From: Nautiliaceae bacterium | Lineage (GTDB): Bacteria > Campylobacterota > Campylobacteria > Campylobacterales > Nautiliaceae | Length of the DNA: 58,059 nt | Direction of reading: 5' to 3' | Assembly: GCA_039831155.1 (NCBI GenBank) | Contig: JBDONT010000013.1 | Location: 1-58,059, forward strand | Shown here: piece after piece, positions 13,305-56,438 of the stretch | Layout: each line of letters opens with the position of its first letter | Numbering within the stretch: position 1 is the stretch's first letter | The notes under the pieces: generated by a model | What the model was told of the DNA's origin: nothing | Seen by the model: the letters and a program-made list of their open reading frames with translations, nothing else | Databases searched by the model: none | Translations under genes and position numbers: made by a program

Positions 13305-15746
13305 ATGTATCCAGGTATTACGGTGATTAAAAGAAACGGAAGACGAGAACCTCTTGATATTTCTAAAATCAGAAAATATACAAAGGCTGCTTGTGAGGGG
13401 CTTAAGGGGGTTGATTATACGGAACTTGAACTTGATGCCAAACTTCAGTTTCGTGACGGAATTACTACGGCTGAAATTCAAGAGACGTTAATTAAAACGG
13501 CAGTTGATAAAATTGATGTCGATAGACCTAATTGGAACTTTGTGGCAGCAAGACTTTTTTTATATGATTTATATCATAGGGTAACCGGATTTACGGGATA
13601 TAATCATTTAAGAGAATATTTTGAAAGAGGGGAAAAAGAGGGGAGAATTTTACTTGGGCTTAAAGAAAAATATGATTTGGATGATTTAAACGATTATATA
13701 AAAACCGATAGGGATTTGCAGTTTACTTATCTTGGGATAAAAACGCTTTATGACAGATATATTATAAAAGACAGACGAGGAAACCCTATTGAGCTTCCAC
13801 AGCAGCTTTTTATGGGTGTTGCTATGTTTTTGGCTCAAAACGAGATAAATCCTAATAGCATTCCTAACGCCGATAAAGATAAAGTTAATTTAAACGACCC
13901 GAAATCCATTAGAGGGTATTGGGCTAAGAAGTTTTATGACGTTATTTCCAAATTCGAGGTAATGGTAGCAACTCCTACTCTTAGCAACGCAAGAACGACG
14001 CGTCACCAATTAAGCAGTTGTTATGTCGGAAGTATGAACGATAACATTGAGGGGATTTTTGATGATTATAAAGAAATGGCTTTACTTAGTAAATTCGGTG
14101 GAGGAATCGGATGGGATTTTAGTAAGATAAGAGCCCTTGGGAGCTTTATAGACAATCATAAAAACGCAGCCGGTGGGGTTGTGCCTTGGCTTAAAATTAC
14201 AAACGATATCGCAATTGCAGTAGACCAGCTGGGAACTAGAAAAGGTGCGATTGCCGTTTATCTTGAGCCGTGGCATATGGATATTTTGGACTTTTTGGAT
14301 TTGAAGAAAAACTCCGGAGAAGAGAGACGCAGGGCTCACGATTTGTTTCCGGCTTTATGGATTAGCGATTTATTTATGAAAAGAGTTCAAAACGATGAGC
14401 TTTGGACGCTTTTTGACCCTTACGAAGTATCGGATTTAACAGACCTTTACGGTGAAGAGTTTGAAAAAAGGTATATAGAATACGAAAACGACCCAAATAT
14501 CACAAAAGAAAAAATTAAAGCGAAAGATTTATGGAAAAAAATTTTAAGAGAGTATTATGAAACTGGAAATCCTTTTCTTTGTTTTAAAGATAATGCAAAC
14601 AGAAGAAATCAAAACGACCACGCCGGAATTATTAGAAGCTCAAACCTTTGTACCGAAATTTTTCAAAACACAGAACCGAATCATTATAAAGTAAAAGTCG
14701 TTTATGAAGATGAGAGCTTTGATTTGTTTGAAGAGGAAGAGGATGTTGAGGTAACTCAAGGTGAAGTGAAAATAGTTAAAAAAGCGAAAAAAATAACTTC
14801 TATTGACGAAATTAACGGTAAAAGAGTTTATATCGTGGAAAAAGTGTCGGTGGAGGGGAAAACTGCCGTTTGTAACCTTGCTAGTGTGAATTTATCTAAA
14901 GTAAATACACCGGAAAAAATTGAAGAAGTTGTTCCGATTGCCATTAGAATGCTTGATAACGTAATTGATTTGAACTACTATCCGGTTAGAAAAACAAAAG
15001 ATACGAACCTTAAAAACAGAGCCATAGGTCTTGGTGCTATGGGTGAGGCTCAAATGCTTGCCGAAAAGCAGATTCACTGGGGAAGTGACGAGCATTTAAG
15101 AGTGATTGACGAAATTTTTGAGGGGATTAGTTACTGGGCTATAAAAACAAGTGCTTCTTTGGCTCAAGAAAAGGGAATTTATCCGGAATTTAATGGTAGC
15201 AGATGGTCTAGGGGAATTCTTCCTATAGACAGTGCGAATGAAGAGGCTAAAAAGCTGGTAAACAGGGATTTATTCAGTGCTACTGCTTATGATTGGGAAG
15301 GGGTAAGAGAAGAGGTTAAAAAAGGAATGAGAAACGGATATTTAATGGCTATAGCTCCTACTAGTTCCATTTCTATTCTTACAGGAACCACTCAAACGAT
15401 AGAGCCGGTTTATAAAAGAAAATGGTTTGAAGAGAATTTAAGTGGATTAATTCCAGTGGTAGTGCCTAATCTTAGTGCCGAGACGTGGATGTTTTATACT
15501 CCGGCGTATGAACTTGACCAAAGAATACTTGTAAAAGCGGCGGCAATTCGTCAAAAATGGATAGACCAGGGACAAAGTCTTAATATCTTTATTACAACCG
15601 ATAAAGCAAGTGGAAAATATTTAAATGAAATTTATATGCTTGGATGGAAACTAGGACTTAAATCGTTTTATTATTTAAGAAGTCAGTCTCCGGAAATTAA
15701 AGAAGAGGTAATGGATAGAAGCGTTGAGTGTTTCGGGTGTCAGTAG
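13305..15746 (+). CDS. nrdA: Class I ribonucleotide reductase alpha subunit
   Basis: ATP cone (VIKRNG), LSSC, SNLCTEI, CNLAS, APTSSIS, YYLRS, C-terminal CxxC. Confidence 0.98.
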   Translation: MYPGITVIKRNGRREPLDISKIRKYTKAACEGLKGVDYTELELDAKLQFRDGITTAEIQETLIKTAVDKIDVDRPNWNFVAARLFLYDLYHRVTGFTGYNHLREYFERGEKEGRILLGLKEKYDLDDLNDYIKTDRDLQFTYLGIKTLYDRYIIKDRRGNPIELPQQLFMGVAMFLAQNEINPNSIPNADKDKVNLNDPKSIRGYWAKKFYDVISKFEVMVATPTLSNARTTRHQLSSCYVGSMNDNIEGIFDDYKEMALLSKFGGGIGWDFSKIRALGSFIDNHKNAAGGVVPWLKITNDIAIAVDQLGTRKGAIAVYLEPWHMDILDFLDLKKNSGEERRRAHDLFPALWISDLFMKRVQNDELWTLFDPYEVSDLTDLYGEEFEKRYIEYENDPNITKEKIKAKDLWKKILREYYETGNPFLCFKDNANRRNQNDHAGIIRSSNLCTEIFQNTEPNHYKVKVVYEDESFDLFEEEEDVEVTQGEVKIVKKAKKITSIDEINGKRVYIVEKVSVEGKTAVCNLASVNLSKVNTPEKIEEVVPIAIRMLDNVIDLNYYPVRKTKDTNLKNRAIGLGAMGEAQMLAEKQIHWGSDEHLRVIDEIFEGISYWAIKTSASLAQEKGIYPEFNGSRWSRGILPIDSANEEAKKLVNRDLFSATAYDWEGVREEVKKGMRNGYLMAIAPTSSISILTGTTQTIEPVYKRKWFEENLSGLIPVVVPNLSAETWMFYTPAYELDQRILVKAAAIRQKWIDQGQSLNIFITTDKASGKYLNEIYMLGWKLGLKSFYYLRSQSPEIKEEVMDRSVECFGCQ

Positions 15747-15754
15747 GAGATAAA

Positions 15755-16591
15755 GTGAGTAAGATAGTAGCTATATTTGTTTGTATTATTATAGGAATTC
15801 TCTCCCTTTTTGTTGGATTTTTAGTAATAAATGAGCTATCATTTGAAGTTTTAGAGAAATTGAAAATTTTATCTTATATATTAATCTCTTTTTCTGTGAT
15901 GATTGCAATTTTGCAATATAGAGAGAACCTAAAACAAAATGAAAACATATCTAAATGGAACAAAAAACAGATTACTATTACACAATTACATAATTTAAGA
16001 CAATCTCTAAACGAAATTACAAAAGAATTAAATAATTATCTAAATACCAGAAGAAAAGAGCCTTATAGTGTAAGAGAAATTCACTCTTTATTCGGTATTA
16101 TTATTGATTGGAGTAAATTGAGCGATTCGGAAAAGGAAAAGTTGGAAAATTTTTTCGGAAGTTATATACAAAAAGAAGATGATATTCCCAATGCCGGAAG
16201 TGTAAGAGAAAATTTTAGATTTGTTTTTTACAAAGAGGATATTCCGCAAAATGTTGAAGAAATTATTGATAAAGTTAGATTAACCAATAAAAGATTGGAA
16301 GAAGAAAAATTAAATGACTTATATTATCATCAAGAATGGAAAAATTATGACGGGAAGTTTTTAAACAAGTCTTTACATAGCTTTTTAAGTGAATATGAGT
16401 ATTTATCTACCGGTGTTAATAATAATATTTTTGAAATAAAAATTGTAGACGATTTAATGGGAAGTCCCGTTATAAGAGCTTATGAAACTTTTAGTTTGTA
16501 TATTTCTCATTTAAGAGAATATCATCAATTAAAAACGTTGTATACTCAATTTCAAAAACTTTATGAAACTATAAAAAGAGAAAGAGGTTAA
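15755..16591 (+). CDS. Membrane-anchored DUF4760-like protein between nrdA and nrdB
   Basis: GTG 15755 after AGGAG; 2 N-terminal TM segments; FLSEYEYLSTGVNNNIFE..YTQFQKLY resembles DUF4760; visibly AT-rich. Confidence 0.75.
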   Translation: MSKIVAIFVCIIIGILSLFVGFLVINELSFEVLEKLKILSYILISFSVMIAILQYRENLKQNENISKWNKKQITITQLHNLRQSLNEITKELNNYLNTRRKEPYSVREIHSLFGIIIDWSKLSDSEKEKLENFFGSYIQKEDDIPNAGSVRENFRFVFYKEDIPQNVEEIIDKVRLTNKRLEEEKLNDLYYHQEWKNYDGKFLNKSLHSFLSEYEYLSTGVNNNIFEIKIVDDLMGSPVIRAYETFSLYISHLREYHQLKTLYTQFQKLYETIKRERG

Positions 16592-19263: not shown

Positions 19264-19943
19264 TACCGATTAGTGAAATTTTTTATTCAATTCAAGGAGA
19301 AGGAAAGTTTGTCGGGCGTCCTAGTATTTTTGTAAGGGTTGGCGGGTGTAATTTAAAATGCCCCGGATTTGGTAAAAACGGATGTGATAGTTACTATGCA
19401 GTAGACAAAGCTTATAAAAATGAGTGGAAATTGATGACAATAAGTGAAATAAAAAAAGTAATAGAGGATTATCCTAAAAAAGTGCACTTGGTTTTAACCG
19501 GGGGAGAACCTATGCTTTATTATAAAGAGCTTTATCCTTTGATTGAGTGGTTTAGTGGAGAGATTACGATTGAAACGAATACGACGATTGAAGTTGACTT
19601 TGACAAATATCCGCAATATAAAGATGTAACTTTCGCTATGAGTGTAAAGCTTAGTAATTCGGGTGAAGAGTATAAAAAAAGAGTAAAAAAAGAGGTAATA
19701 AAATCATACGCCCTAAATGCGAAGAAAAGTTTTTTTAAGTTTGTAGTTGATAGGGATTTAAAAGAAGAGATTGAGGATATTGTGGGTAATTTAAAAAACG
19801 AAATTTATTGTATGCCGCTGGGTAGCGATAAAGAAGAGCTTGAAGTTAATGCTCCGTTTGTATTTGAATTTTGTTTAAAAAACGGGTATTGTTATAGTGA
19901 TAGGATTCATATTAGGCTTTTTGGAAAGAAAAAAGGAGTTTAA
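19248..19943 (+). CDS. queE: 7-carboxy-7-deazaguanine synthase
   Basis: EIFYSIQGEG, GCNLKC..CDS, TGGEP, ETN, R.H; upstream of queD. Confidence 0.93.
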   Translation: MDSKVIPISEIFYSIQGEGKFVGRPSIFVRVGGCNLKCPGFGKNGCDSYYAVDKAYKNEWKLMTISEIKKVIEDYPKKVHLVLTGGEPMLYYKELYPLIEWFSGEITIETNTTIEVDFDKYPQYKDVTFAMSVKLSNSGEEYKKRVKKEVIKSYALNAKKSFFKFVVDRDLKEEIEDIVGNLKNEIYCMPLGSDKEELEVNAPFVFEFCLKNGYCYSDRIHIRLFGKKKGV

Positions 19944-20524
19944 TGATAATAAGAAAACTTTATAAATTTGAAAACGCCCATATTGTACGGGATTGTACAA
20001 GCAGGCGTTGCAGTCGTTCAATTCACGGGCACAGTTATAAAGTTGAAGTAAAGCTTAGGAGCAATTTTTTGGATAACGCCCAGATGGTGTATGATTTTGG
20101 GCTTATGAAGCTCAGTATTAAAGAACTTATCGATAGTTTTGACCATGCCATTACTTTGTGGAGTAAAGATAATCCGGAATATAAAGAATTTGCCAAAAAA
20201 TTTAGTGAAAGATGGATAGAGCTTCCAATAAATCCAAGTGCAGAGCAGTTTAGCAGGGTCTTTTTTGTAATGATTGACAGGGTGCTTGAGTGTATGGAGT
20301 TTAGGAATGGAGAAAAGGAAGTTAAACTTTATTCAATTGTAGTGCACGAAACGGATACCGGGTATGCCGAGTGTTTTAGAGAGGATGCTTATAATAAAAA
20401 TATGGGTGAGATAAGGCTTGAAGATATTATTTTTAGTGACAGAATAAAAGAAGAATGGAGTGATAAGAGGCTTTTTGAAAAGCTTATAAAAAGAGAAAAC
20501 ATTGTTCCTCCTAATGAAATATGA
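19943..20524 (+). CDS. queD: 6-carboxytetrahydropterin synthase (long QueD form)
   Basis: FENAH, C..IHGHSY, DFG, FDH, PSAE, HET. Confidence 0.92.
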   Translation: MIIRKLYKFENAHIVRDCTSRRCSRSIHGHSYKVEVKLRSNFLDNAQMVYDFGLMKLSIKELIDSFDHAITLWSKDNPEYKEFAKKFSERWIELPINPSAEQFSRVFFVMIDRVLECMEFRNGEKEVKLYSIVVHETDTGYAECFREDAYNKNMGEIRLEDIIFSDRIKEEWSDKRLFEKLIKRENIVPPNEI

Positions 20525-20544
20525 GTGTTTCTCTGATATTAACC

Positions 20545-20573
20545 TTGACAATATCTCACTAAAAGTTTATAAT
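20545..20573 (+). promoter_or_regulatory. Consensus sigma70 promoter
   Basis: TTGACA-17 nt-TATAAT; -35 flanked by GATATT-N9-AATATC inverted repeat. Confidence 0.75.
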
Positions 20574-20599
20574 TATAAAAAACTAAAGGAGATAAAGTT

Positions 20600-21289
20600 A
20601 TGATAACTGAATTAAGAGAAACACAACTTTTAAACACACTTGTGTTTGAAACATTAGGAGAGCCTTCAAGAGAAAGAGAATTTAAGATAAAATCTCTAAA
20701 AAAATGGGGATTTGATTTGGTATTTGGTAAAAAAGACGGAGTTGAGACTTTTTGGGGAGTGGAAGAAGGAAGCAAAAAAGCAGGGGATACGTATGTAGAA
20801 GATGAAGTAAATCATGAAGTTACTGAAATTCTTGAAAAACTTCCAAAAAATAAAAAAATGTTTGCAAAAATTGAAATGGTTGAGGGGAGAGCTTATTTAT
20901 ACGTTTATTTAAGAGAAGACGATATTGATACTCCAATTTTACATGTACCGGCTGGTGAAGTATTACTTGCGTTTTTAAAAAAACACAAATTTATAAAAAT
21001 CATAGAAGCTATAAGAAATCTTGGAAGTGCTGCCAGTCTTGTTAAAAAGCACGGAGATGAAGGAAAGTCTATTCCTTATGAAGAACTGCCACCGGTTCCA
21101 AGAAGATTTTTAAGAGATGCTAAAAAAATAGAAAAAGAGATGGGCTTTGGTAGAATTGCGTTAGCTTACTTTGGGGAAAATAAAAGTGGGGAAGCAAGAT
21201 ACTGGATGGAGTGGATGGTACCTACGATTGCTTTATTTGATGAGAAAATTAGTGAGAAAATAGATAAAGCTTTAGCTGAATTTAAGTAA
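20600..21289 (+). CDS. Soluble hypothetical protein, first gene of a 4-gene operon
   Basis: 229 aa, AAGGAG SD, no motif recognised. Confidence 0.85.
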
Positions 21290-21298
21290 GGAGAAAAG

Positions 21299-22021
21299 AT
21301 GCTTATATTTTGGAGTGGAACTTCTTTTGAAAAAGAGGGGTTTTTAGAAGATGATAACGGGATGTTTATCCCAAGAAATGCCCTTTTAGAAGCCCTTGAG
21401 AGTGCTGTTGTTTTTTATTACATCAAAAAAGATAAAGCGTTAGAGAATTTAGTAAAAAAATACCTAATGACAAAACCAAAACTAAAAGAAATCTCTAAAG
21501 AGGTTAAAAAAAGGGTATTTGAAAAATACCCTGTGCTTGATGGGATTGAAATACCTGAGAAAATCTATCTGGATAAAGATAAAATCTCAAACGAACTTGT
21601 AAAAGTTTTTGATTTAGAAAAAAAAGAGTTTACCGGTAGTTTTAGAATGGATGTTTTTAAGGGTGTATTAGAAGATGTTAAAGTAAAATCAAACAATATG
21701 GAAAAAATTAAAAACGCTTGTAAAGCTTATGCAAGGGCGCTTGCTGAATATGAGCACAAAGCCCTAAAAGATACTGAATTTGAAGATTTAATAACTGAAA
21801 TTCAAAATAATATTGCAAATGAGTGGGAAATACCTGTTCGTGTTGGATACTGGACAAATACTCCTTATAAAGGAGATTTGCTTTTCTTTTGGAGAGTAAA
21901 AGAGGTTAGAGATTATTTATTAAAACATCTTCATATTGACATACGTCCAAAAGATGTGCTATATTTACCACGCACAAACGAATTCCTAGGACTAGGAGAA
22001 ATAAAGGAAGAAAATGATTAA
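21299..22021 (+). CDS. Hypothetical protein resembling a degenerate Csm5 (Cas7-group RAMP)
   Basis: FIPRNALLEALESAV, VRVGYW, PKD..FLGLGEI parallel Csm5 blocks; the CDS is solid, the family call is tentative. Confidence 0.6.
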   Translation: MLIFWSGTSFEKEGFLEDDNGMFIPRNALLEALESAVVFYYIKKDKALENLVKKYLMTKPKLKEISKEVKKRVFEKYPVLDGIEIPEKIYLDKDKISNELVKVFDLEKKEFTGSFRMDVFKGVLEDVKVKSNNMEKIKNACKAYARALAEYEHKALKDTEFEDLITEIQNNIANEWEIPVRVGYWTNTPYKGDLLFFWRVKEVRDYLLKHLHIDIRPKDVLYLPRTNEFLGLGEIKEEND

Positions 22022-22391
22022 AGTAGCAGTGCCTGTAAAAGATGAAAGTTTAGAGATTGTGACAAGAACGGGACGTGCTCCTTATTTTGCTATATTTAAG
22101 TGTGATGAGAGTGGATGTAAATTGCTTTCATTAAATGAAAATACACACGCACACGAACACGAGCACGAACACGGACATGCTGAAGAGCATACGGCAGATG
22201 AAGTGGAACACCACCATAAACACGTAAAAGCAAGCAGACTTAGCGGAGTTGATTATATAGTGGTTAGAGCACTCGGACAGAATATGGAAGATGCTCTTAA
22301 GATGGAGGGTATTAAAATTATAAAAATCAGTAAAAAAGACGGAGAAAAAGCAGACGAGGTTCTTGAAAAAATCAAGGAGCAGTTAAAATGA
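22014..22391 (+). CDS. NifB/NifX-family protein with His-rich insert
   Basis: KVAVP..GRAPYFAIF, GVDYIVV..LG..L..GIKI; HAHEHEHEHGH..HHHKH. Confidence 0.85.
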   Translation: MIKVAVPVKDESLEIVTRTGRAPYFAIFKCDESGCKLLSLNENTHAHEHEHEHGHAEEHTADEVEHHHKHVKASRLSGVDYIVVRALGQNMEDALKMEGIKIIKISKKDGEKADEVLEKIKEQLK

Positions 22392-22753
22392 GACTTGTGA
22401 TTCCGAGCGATACGCCAGACGGATTATTGGCAAAAAGAGGAGCTCACTTTGGAAAAGCTCCTTTTTATGTAATTGTCGATATTGAAAATAATGAAATTAA
22501 AGATGTTGATTTCGTTCAAAATCCCGGTCACGCTGGTGGGGCGTGTGGTAATGCTGTAATGAATATAAAAAATCTTGGTGCCGATACATTGATAGTAGCA
22601 GGAATTGGGGCAAGACCATTAATTGGATTTAAAGAAGCTGGGATAAAAGTATATTTTGATAACGTCTCACCTACGGTTGGAGAAGCGATTGAGAAGTTTT
22701 TAAGAGGTGAAATAGAAGAGATTAAACCTGAAAATACTTGTGGAGTTCACTAA
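22388..22753 (+). CDS. NifB/NifX-family protein
   Basis: HFGKAPFY, NPGH.GGAC, GIG.R..GIKV, C-terminal CGVH. Confidence 0.9.
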   Translation: MRLVIPSDTPDGLLAKRGAHFGKAPFYVIVDIENNEIKDVDFVQNPGHAGGACGNAVMNIKNLGADTLIVAGIGARPLIGFKEAGIKVYFDNVSPTVGEAIEKFLRGEIEEIKPENTCGVH

Positions 22754-23123
22754 AAAGTCTTTTTTTTATCTCTTCTTTTGTTTTTATAAACTCTTCATAC
22801 CCTTTGCCGTCTGGGTCTTCAAAAGGTATATGAACTGTTTTTACTCCTGGAATTGTAGGGCAACTTTTAGCAGCATTATCACATACGGTTATGGCTAAAT
22901 CAAAAGGTGCGTATTTCATAGCTTCTTCTATACTTTTTGAGTGATATTTTTCACTCCATGCATCTTCTTGGATTAAAACTTTTTTTGCATTCGGATTTAC
23001 TTTGCCACTTGGATTGCTTCCGGCACTGTAAGCTTTTATGTTTTTGAAGTATTTATTAATTAATCCTTCTGCTATTATCGAGCGGCAGCTGTTGCCCGTG
23101 CATAAAATTAAAATTTTTTTCAA
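22722..23123 (-). CDS. arsC: Arsenate reductase (thioredoxin-linked, LMW-PTPase fold)
   Basis: CTGNSCRS, TVCD..CP, DP; TTG start at 23123 after AAAGGA. Confidence 0.9.
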   Translation of the reverse strand: MKKILILCTGNSCRSIIAEGLINKYFKNIKAYSAGSNPSGKVNPNAKKVLIQEDAWSEKYHSKSIEEAMKYAPFDLAITVCDNAAKSCPTIPGVKTVHIPFEDPDGKGYEEFIKTKEEIKKRLFSELHKYFQV

Positions 23124-23186
23124 AATTTTTCCTTTTTTGTCTTGAATTTTAAAATAAATTTGATATAATTTCAATCCACAGCTAAT

Positions 23187-23277
<91 letters not shown>

Positions 23278-23329: not shown

Positions 23330-23373
23330 TGTCAGTCGTTTTGGGCAGATTTTTACTGACATTTTAACTGACA
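23330..23373. repeat. ACTGACA motifs (two direct, one inverted), resembling integrase arm-type sites
   Basis: TGTCAGT 23330-23336; ACTGACA 23355-23361 and 23367-23373. Confidence 0.45.
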
Positions 23374-23795
23374 GTTAAATTCATAATTAAATTAATCATT
23401 ACTTCTTTCTCATTAGGATGTGATTTTGCAATTAGTAAAGTCAAACTTGTTAATGTTGCAAAATTGATATTTTCATTTAATAAATTGTTTTTATCTAAAA
23501 AACTGACAAATATATAAGCACTGATTCTTTTATTTCCATCTATAAAAGGATGGTCTTTTACAATATAGTAAAGCAAATTTGCCGCTTTTTCTTCGGTTAA
23601 TGGTAATAGTTCTATTCCATCAAATGTTTGGAAAATATGTTCAAGTATTTCTTTGAAACTTTCATCTTTTTGCATTCCTAAAAGTTCGCTTGCCTGATTT
23701 TTAGAAATTAGATAGTGCTTTAATTCTTCAATTTCATTCGAAACTTGATGAAAGTTTAATTTTTTAATAGTTTGTTTCCTTTGGGTTTAGGAATG
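23364..23795 (-). pseudogene. N-terminally truncated RhuM/Fic/Doc-family gene
   Basis: EEKAANLLY..KDHPFIDGNKRI Doc-type motif; frame extends to TIKKLNFHQVSNEIEELK, then frameshift near PKPKG. Confidence 0.8.
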
Positions 23796-23957: not shown

Positions 23958-24285
23958 ACTTTCCCTTGTTAGGGGAAATAGGCTCCCTCAATAAAACTGT
24001 GTAAATCCTAAAATAAGTTGCTAAAATAAAAAATAATATTAAAAGGATTTACATATGGGAATTTTGAATCTTGAAGAATACAAAAGAAGACTTGAATCAG
24101 GAAATCCCGTAACAATCCAGGAATTGGAAAACGAACTGAAAATATTAATCAAAGAGATGATTGAAGCTGCAACCCAGGGTGAGCTTACTTCTCATTTGGG
24201 TTATGAAAAGAATGAAAAATCAGATACTGACAATTACAGAAACGGATACGGTAAAAAAAGTCTGAAATCCAAATACAGAGAAATT

Positions 24286-24329
24286 GTCCTCAGACTTCGT
24301 CTTGCGGGATTGTCGCCTTCGGCTCGGAT
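24286..24329 (+). repeat. 44-nt hairpin mini-insertion in the IS256 transposase
   Basis: Removal restores EI(K/E)VNIPRDR in frame; contains AGAC-TTC-GTCT and GCC-TTC-GGC. Confidence 0.8.
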
Positions 24330-24556
24330 AAAGTAAATATTCCAAGGGACAGAAATTCAACGTTTGAGCCAAAGTTAGTAAAAAAAGAGACAAAGACTGT
24401 TGGGTGGACGGAAGATTTGATTTTGTCCTTATATGCAAAAGGAATGAGCGTAAAAGACATACAACACCATCTTGACGATTTATACGGATATGAACTCTCA
24501 ACCGAAACAATTTCAAACATTACCGAGAAAATATTAGAAAAAGCGATAGAATGGCA

Positions 24557-24592
24557 TACTGCGTAGCTTTATCCCGCAACGAAGTGAGGACA
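24557..24592 (-). repeat. 36-nt hairpin mini-insertion in the IS256 transposase, opposite orientation
   Basis: Removal restores EWQNRPLEP; reverse complement TGTCCTCACTTCGTTGCGGGATAAAGCTACGCAGTA shares its core with the first insertion. Confidence 0.8.
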
Positions 24593-25318
24593 AAACAGAC
24601 CCTTAGAGCCGATATATCCCATTATTTTTATGAATTCCACCGTATTAAAAATAAAAATCGAAAGAGCTATAAAAAATACATCCTGTTATATAATGCTTGG
24701 AATTAACCTTGAAGGCAAAAAAGACATTTTAGGCATATGGATAGCCGAAGAAAACGAAACTTCCAAATACTGGCTTTCAATTCTTAATGAAATAAAAAAC
24801 AGAGGCGTGGATGATGTTTTAATATTTTCAATAGACGGATTAAACGGATTTAACGAAGCTATAAAAGTCGTATATCCGAAAGCTGAAAATTCAAAGATGC
24901 GTGGTTCATCAGATAAGAAATTCACTTAAATTTGTATCTTACAAAGACAGAAGAGAAATAGCCAAAGATTTAAAATCCATCTATCAGGCCGATACGGAAG
25001 ACATTGCACTTCAAAACCTTGAATATTTCAATGATAAATGGTCTAAAAAATATCCTCACATCTATGATTCCTGGAAAAGAAACTGGGATGAGCTTTCCAC
25101 CTTTTTTAAGTATCCAAAGGCTGTAAGAAAGCTCATATATACCATTAATCCGATAGAATCTTTAAATTCTATCATAAAAAGAAAAAACAAGGCAAAAAAG
25201 CTCGTTTCCTTCAAAAGAATCGGCTTTTAAAGTACTTTTTACTTCAACATAGGAGGTTATGGAAAAATGGAAAAGCTCCAGAATCGGAATTTCTAATAGT
25301 CCCAGTTTAAATTTTATA

Positions 25319-56202: not shown

Positions 56203-56268
56203 CTCAGCTGGTAGAGCACTACCCCGACACGGTAGGGGTCGCTGGTTCGAGTCCAGCTGCGACCACCA
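56193..56268 (+). tRNA. tRNA-Val(GAC), probable integration site
   Basis: Cloverleaf, loop CC-GAC-AC, encoded CCA; overlaps the last 10 nt of lspA. Confidence 0.93.
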
Positions 56269-56438
56269 CTGATTATAACTTACATTTTCTATTCTTTACA
56301 AAATCCCCGAAAAATCGAAACTTTAAATTTTAACTTTTTACATATATTCCTATTCTTTTACATACTTGCACTTTATTTTAGGGTAATATAGGGGTATAAT
56401 TTTAACAATATGAATAAGTTACCCTAAAAGGATTTGTG

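Follow-up and report, generated by a model that had tools for sequence, protein, structure and literature searches.

The stretch of DNA analysed here (the window, 58,059 nucleotides from a Nautiliaceae bacterium) holds, at 21299-22021 on the plus strand and as the preliminary description of this DNA had it, an open reading frame for a 240-aa protein. The frame begins with ATG, carries a GGAG ribosome-binding site 8 nt upstream and uses a start common to its homologues, whose names, for the closest of them, point to a Caminibacter-like member of the Nautiliaceae. We call it the Csm5-like protein, or Csm5L. Immediately before it, at 20600-21289 (+), lies its conserved upstream partner, a 229-aa protein of the UPF0128 family that matches both Pfam PF03673 (full-length, E 4.5e-89, 298 bits against a cut-off of 21) and TIGR00703 (E 5.7e-82, 274.5 bits against a cut-off of 155.4). 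The Csm5L start, with its own GGAG site, comes 9 nt past the UPF0128 stop, and 27 nt before the UPF0128 start is a promoter-like TTGACA-17 nt-TATAAT (20545-20573, +; a match to the sigma-70-type consensus only, at 12/12 positions), followed by an AAGGAG ribosome-binding site. Given the 9-nt gap and the promoter-like site 5' of UPF0128, both genes look like one transcription unit. RNA-library contigs of one vent sample (runs X1 and X2, from a single study) match 19876-23274 in overlapping pieces with zero differing letters, and one of 792 nt spans the UPF0128/Csm5L junction; in two further runs, X3 and X4, short parts of the region are present in diverged form. This is a weak hint of expression, as carried-over DNA could also yield such contigs.

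Downstream, two small NifX/NifB-like (Nitro_FeMo-Co) genes follow in the same direction at 22014-22753 (+; PF02579 E 3.7e-11 and 1.9e-17), the first of which shares 8 nt with the 3' end of Csm5L and so overlaps its stop. These neighbours are confined to the Nautiliaceae loci (L007-L018), where QueE/QueD stand on one side of the Csm5L pair and the two NifX-like genes on the other, all in one direction; the QueD/QueE/NifX context is missing from the loci of Nitratiruptor, Aquificota and Thermodesulfobacteriota, which places it outside the conserved module.

A few other features of the window deserve a mention. Between the genes for the two subunits of ribonucleotide reductase is a 287-aa reading frame (15728-16591, +) whose N-terminus is hydrophobic; in the closest relative, L007, the corresponding region is split into four pieces of 65-96% identity. 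A 103-aa reading frame at 23364-23675 (-) contains HPFIDGNKR, which we take to be a likeness of the Fic/Doc motif, the frame being short for a full Fic protein. Three successive short reading frames (93, 99 and 109 aa) at 24055-25230 (+) look, judging from their translations, like one transposase-type gene split by frame changes. At 56230-56362 (-) the Rfam antisense-RNA family HPnc0260 matches with 63.1 bits (gathering score 59), and overlaps a tRNA gene encoded by the other strand.

Resemblance to Csm5

The preliminary description had called the 240-aa protein Csm5-like. That name is strongly supported, by the fold and by remote sequence homology together. An AlphaFold2 model built with 30 homologues reached pLDDT 92.3 and pTM 0.88. 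Of the 48,161 representative chains of solved structure with which it was compared, just four gave a Z of at least 8, all of them deposited as Csm5: 6mur_F (Z 16.3, rmsd 3.0, 225 residues aligned), 7uzz_E (15.5), 6ifk_H (14.6) and 9ash_J (14.5), with alignments that cover 187-225 residues of the model. The next fold, the type IV Cas7 chain 8rc2_A, came in at Z 7.1, and other Cas7-group RAMPs came after it at Z 4-7. The Foldseek comparison proposed in the preliminary description likewise recovered the Csm5 RAMP fold, with seven matches at E<=0.001 (4.8e-5 to 7.8e-4), all Csm5 chains or entries and among them the crystal structure of Thermococcus onnurineus Csm5, 6ldn. The predicted fold, in other words, is that of the RAMP domain of solved Csm5.

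The sequence evidence comes from profiles. A broad one, A3, was made from 29 sequences reaching down to 24% identity, and its hhalign alignment with an Aquificota Csm5 (probability 97.0%, E 9.7e-11) extends over 211 columns and pairs Csm5L residues 13-237 with Csm5 residues 98-328; that Csm5 is itself recognised by TIGR01899 (E 7.9e-39) and sits in a csm2-csm3-csm4-csm5 operon. Run over 121 Aquificota genomes, the same profile found 37 strong Csm5L matches and, beyond these, weaker ones in reading frames of 330-430 aa (best E 2.2e-11); all five of the weaker matches that were retrieved are TIGR01899 Csm5 proteins (E 7.9e-39 to 2.8e-26). Real Csm5 proteins also match the window reading frame in tblastn at E 2e-4. 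Against 16 Campylobacterota Csm5 proteins a profile reached a probability of only 28-46%. Against PDB sequences, A3 reached Csm5 chains only at E 0.23-0.72, and the two profiles A1 and A2 gave nothing significant.

The idea that a resemblance of this kind arose by chance, or as an artefact of modelling, has two points to draw on: no curated family model matches Csm5L, and profile A1 aligned with the source genome's own Csm5 at a probability of just 1.7%. We nevertheless regard it as extremely improbable, considering the gap between Z 14.5-16.3 and 7.1 over alignments of such length, the separate testimony of 211 co-linear columns, and the fact that each weaker profile match retrieved turned out to be a true Csm5. 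That Csm5L is a genuine remote homologue of Csm5—a RAMP domain either derived from Csm5 or related to it, perhaps as an older sister—is strongly supported.

The preliminary description rested its case on five sequence blocks in Csm5 order. Four of them are co-linear with real Csm5 in the profile alignment: FIPRNALLEALESAVVFY pairs with YIPGSEIKGAIRTALLY of Csm5, EKIKNACKAYARALAEYE with the Csm5 segment W-K-R-S-C-Y-E-F, PVRVGYWT with LLRIGRFTG, and IRPKD...FLGLGEI with LLPKTRR...PLGWIKL. Block 1 (LIFWSG, likened to HIGSG) is not part of that alignment, whose first Csm5L residue is 13, and is backed only by the range of the structural superposition, model residues 1..236.

What has been kept, then, and what lost? 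The elements still recognisable are the loop and helix alpha-1 (FIPRNALLEALESA in Csm5L, YIPGSEIKGAIRTA in Csm5), a helical stretch, a long beta-hairpin made of strands 96-105 and 110-124, the R181-x-G183-x-W185 loop that answers to LRIGRFTG, and the C-terminal D-I-R-P...G-W motif that answers to LLPKTRR...PLGW; the 23 columns that are invariant in the Csm5L family fall mostly within them. Missing are about 97 N-terminal residues of Csm5, since the alignment begins only at Csm5 residue 98, and Csm5L is correspondingly short, at 240 aa against 329-488 aa for Csm5. [quoted passage not shown] Going by those named SeCsm5 residues, the N-terminal part that Csm5L lacks would hold the capping domain, and Csm5L would then correspond, as far as its sequence allows one to say, essentially to the RAMP domain.

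Even within the retained domain a crRNA grip may have faded. In the consensus of the family the glycine-rich signatures, described beforehand as eroded, indeed show no conservation. The beta1-loop of Csm5 has two conserved glycines; after strand 1 the Csm5L consensus has no Gly-x-Gly, and a single glycine, at about position 14, is common in the family. In helix alpha-1 the positions that read K-G...R in Csm5 read L-E...E in Csm5L. With these replacements, and with glycine-rich loops that are not conserved, contacts of the crRNA type may be lost. The window protein is mildly acidic (pI 5.85, net charge -3); the pI of the family has a median of 8.3, and that of Csm5 a median of 9.0 (n=16).

Partners, distribution and distance from CRISPR-cas

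Csm5L belongs to a small family. We found 73 homologues at 42-91% identity, all named 'hypothetical', in Caminibacter, Nautilia, Nitratiruptor, Persephonella and other Aquificota, and among 1.84 billion only 32 representative clusters with E<=0.001, one of which is spurious (P0101, a 1609-aa RTX-repeat protein that we have rejected as a member). Carriers make up 9 of 301 Campylobacterota genomes and, by strong profile matches, 37 of 121 Aquificota genomes; the family also occurs in Thermodesulfobacteriota, and a distant homologue is named in Thermus. Every genome and locus with Csm5L in this dataset is from a thermophile, of vents or hot springs. At the level of genera the distribution is patchy; the gene is single-copy, with no mobile-element genes beside it in the loci inspected, and purifying selection on it is clear in Campylobacterota, Aquificota and Thermodesulfobacteriota. 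No fused form appeared among proteins of 421-2000 aa, which is weak evidence. In seven genomes of genus g12 (G012, G027, G117, G161, G180, G198 and G220) the Csm5L profile has weak matches (E 1e-4 to 6e-4) over 54-62 profile positions, within positions 28-89, in reading frames that range from 319 to 824 aa, with five at about 820 aa; we counted these seven as not Csm5L.

Existing databases pass the family by. Csm5L drew nothing significant from Pfam or NCBIfam and no PF03787 or TIGR01899 row at E<=1, and in a TIGR01899 search of the 301 genomes none of the matches listed fell at a Csm5L gene, those of the source genome being on contigs C19 and C25 only. In PADLOC-DB 2.0 Csm5L has just two matches, both marginal and partial (HNH_I-A, E 0.0039; HamB, E 0.0045), and UPF0128 has none. 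Csm5L is most suitably classed as a new family, Csm5-like and stand-alone; neither the family nor its gene linkage is in Pfam, NCBIfam or the literature searched.

It is also, as had been proposed, an orphan. In the window no 18-mer occurs at least three times on the plus strand, and a tblastn search with 14 type III proteins, which covered the window together with 98 related loci (730 kb), matched nothing but the Csm5L genes. The earlier statement that the window has no array or other cas gene thus holds for type III genes and repeats, and the homologues in those 98 loci do not lie in ordinary type III operons. The source genome does have CRISPR machinery, and has it elsewhere: a type III-A csm2-5 operon with its own full-length Csm5 of 404 aa, together with type III-B genes, is on other contigs, and its matches to the RAMP family PF03787 are confined to C19 and C25 (the window is C22). 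Among the eight other Campylobacterota carriers five have RAMP genes, and three (G031, G043 and G072, each 100% complete) have no PF03787 match; two of these three have no TIGR01899 among the matches listed. Csm5L, that is, occurs in cells with no RAMP gene at all.

If not cas genes, what does Csm5L keep company with? The preliminary description asked whether homologues always follow the 229-aa gene. In the main they do: of 55 genome loci from Nautiliaceae, Nitratiruptor, Aquificota and Thermodesulfobacteriota four are too truncated to judge, and in 43 of the 51 informative ones UPF0128 is directly 5' of Csm5L. "Always" fails in the other eight, seven of which have no UPF0128 in the flank and one of which has it 3 kb upstream, and UPF0128 was elsewhere in the genome in four of the five exception genomes tested. 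Across the 301 Campylobacterota genomes Csm5L and UPF0128 occur in the identical nine, adjacent every time; across the 121 Aquificota genomes 35 have both, two have Csm5L alone, one has UPF0128 alone and 83 have neither. (Such co-occurrence counts, here and below, take in related genomes, which are not independent samples.) Four Aquificota genomes (G305, G306, G307 and G411) have two UPF0128 paralogues, with E of about 1e-97 and about 1e-67, and in the first three Csm5L and UPF0128 are non-adjacent. UPF0128 is about 60% identical between phyla. Its AlphaFold2 model is good (pLDDT 87.2), and the search of that model against solved folds returned no convincing relative: a best Z of 5.5 for partial ferredoxin-like pieces, no RAMP chain among the best 50 matches listed, and nothing from Foldseek at E<=0.001.

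A third member of the module, absent from the preliminary description, is DUF505. It came to light in metagenome loci with more distant forms of Csm5L (for that scan we used a narrower profile, A4, because A3 was too divergent), where it is directly 5' of Csm5L in 11 of 43 loci as a protein of 643-665 aa matching PF04458 at E 1e-205 to 1e-243. The order UPF0128-DUF505-[164 aa]-Csm5L is reported for L097, L123 and L124, and the order UPF0128-Csm5L-DUF505 is found in two Aquificota genomes, G365 and G401. Distance along the chromosome notwithstanding, the two families go together: DUF505 is present in 9/9 Campylobacterota carriers of Csm5L (16/301 genomes over the cut-off in the whole sample), in 37/37 Aquificota carriers (52/121 in the whole sample) and in all five carrier genomes reached via loci, one of them from Thermodesulfobacteriota. 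The reverse is not so, as seven Campylobacterota and 15 Aquificota genomes have DUF505 without Csm5L. In the source genome DUF505 stands alone amid housekeeping genes on contig C20. Of the control genomes, Thermotoga maritima has DUF505 and Methanocaldococcus jannaschii carries both UPF0128 and DUF505. DUF505 has weak winged-helix (PadR-like) matches only; searches of PDB sequences gave nothing significant and the ESM Atlas only its own family and sub-threshold leads. We found no functional literature on either family, and their identities give no biochemical clue to the role of Csm5L.

Some looser neighbours were seen in the metagenome loci. A 164-aa protein without a Pfam or NCBIfam match stands between DUF505 and Csm5L in six of them (L092-L094, L097, L102 and L123; for example L123:4495-4989); the idea of a Cas11-like small subunit finds no support, at probabilities of 0.2-0.4% against Csm2 and Cmr5. 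A rhomboid gene adjoins the DUF505-Csm5L cluster in nine loci (L092-L094, L096, L097, L102, L120 and L123 are named), on a side that varies with lineage, and in eight loci, L094 not being one of them, an SDH-type ClpP-like serine protease gene (PF01972) accompanies it. Directly 3' of Csm5L in two loci (L099:2893-3678 and L107:3769-4614) is a ParB-N / GmrSD-N-like gene, a weak match at E 2e-5 to 2e-4.

Possible roles

The reading that we prefer, and hold with somewhat more belief than doubt, is that Csm5L is a stand-alone, shortened homologue of Csm5 in a CRISPR-independent module of thermophiles with UPF0128 and DUF505, and that its RAMP domain binds RNA. Its steps would be these. Csm5L keeps the RAMP domain, does without the capping domain and would work outside the Cas10-Csm complex; UPF0128 is probably co-transcribed from directly upstream, and DUF505 (about 620-660 aa) is usually encoded elsewhere in the genome. 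[quoted passage not shown] By analogy, an RNA-processing adaptor is made attractive by the recruitment of PNPase and RNase R by Csm5, as described in PMC9762709, PMC5389561 and PMC10289348. The preliminary description had gone directly to exaptation for a non-defence role, which we find plausible: housekeeping synteny and the want of a convincing match to any defence model favour such a role.

But must a RAMP fold still bind RNA? It might now serve as a protein scaffold, or provide a subunit to, say, a cofactor or metabolic pathway that handles no nucleic acid, and its RNA binding might be gone. The acidity of the window protein (pI 5.85) would suit such a change, as would the acidic and aliphatic residues at once-basic alpha-1 positions, the erosion of the glycine loops and, in Nautiliaceae, a place between QueE/QueD and two NifX-like genes. 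We think it unlikely all the same, given that the QueD/QueE/NifX context is limited to L007-L018, that the family median pI of 8.3 is basic, and that Csm5L has no conserved partners other than UPF0128 and DUF505, the latter with weak winged-helix matches of a kind typical of nucleic-acid binders. Defence is another thought that comes readily with a protein of probable Cas origin, patchily spread among genera: UPF0128, DUF505 and Csm5L could be a CRISPR-independent innate system with a Cas-derived RNA sensor. The PADLOC matches (E 0.004) and the ParB/GmrSD-N-like gene after Csm5L in L099 and L107 point that way, both weakly, and the former are marginal and partial, with none for UPF0128. Against this stand the housekeeping synteny (ribonucleotide reductase, QueDE) conserved throughout Nautiliaceae, the cross-phylum identity of UPF0128, which is unlike that of fast-evolving defence genes, and a single-copy gene with no mobile-element genes adjoining it in the loci inspected; we consider a defence system decidedly unlikely.

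Could Csm5L instead serve the resident type III-A complexes in trans, as a spare for their head subunit or an alternative to it? The source genome has III-A and III-B loci on other contigs, and five of eight other Campylobacterota carriers have RAMP genes. We give this very little credence. Three carriers with complete genomes have no PF03787 match, the resident operon already encodes a full-length Csm5, the part of the protein that would have touched Csm2 and target RNA (on the account in PMC10289348) is missing, and the linkage, in the loci examined, is to UPF0128 and DUF505 and never to cas genes. More ambitious than the stand-alone, RNA-binding homologue that we prefer is an extension of it: UPF0128, DUF505 and Csm5L (plus the 164-aa protein in one clade) might form a hitherto unrecognised, CRISPR-independent RNP machine of thermophiles, in which a RAMP surface of the Csm5 type carries one specific cellular RNA. 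That machine would be either an ancient housekeeping relative, the source of the type III head subunit, or what remains of a class-1 effector, now given over to maintaining RNA at high temperature. We offer this as a speculation with rather long odds. Were it true, it would give a first function to two old orphan families, both of which are present in Methanocaldococcus jannaschii.

Comparison with known systems

That Cas proteins can be put to use outside immunity is recognised, if thinly documented, and to studies of CRISPR evolution Csm5L offers a clean case, a RAMP domain on its own. It also offers an experimental handle on the orphan families UPF0128 and DUF505, in the shape of a partner that is predicted to be a likely RNA binder. 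We found no published account of a Csm5L-like family, or of a link between UPF0128 or DUF505 and Cas proteins, in the main texts searched.

With the other Cas7-group RAMPs (Csm3, Cmr4, Cmr6, Csf2 and the Cas7 domains of gRAMP/Cas7-11) Csm5L has the RRM-like RAMP core in common. Yet its similarity to them, at Z 4.7-7.1 for 8rc2_A, 9g9a_D, 6o7h_C, 3x1l_H, 6ae2_B and 8d9g_B, is far below its similarity to Csm5, and it has no PF03787 match. Next to Csm5 it has the same RAMP-domain fold (in the model) and co-linear homology over about 225 residues, in which the alpha-1 motif, R-x-G loop and C-terminal P...GW motif are all included; it differs in scoring below every curated model, in the probable absence of a capping domain and in having no csm operon. 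Csm5 is encoded beside cas10 and csm2-4, and Csm5L is linked instead to UPF0128 and DUF505.

The repeated exaptation of Cas proteins and modules outside adaptive immunity has been noted (PMC12669027), in an account whose main text makes no mention of Csm5 or DUF505. Like those exapted modules, Csm5L is a Cas-derived, or at least Cas-related, protein kept under selection away from CRISPR-cas; what sets it apart is that here the head subunit of a type III complex stands alone, with no guide array, no Cas10 and none of the other backbone subunits.
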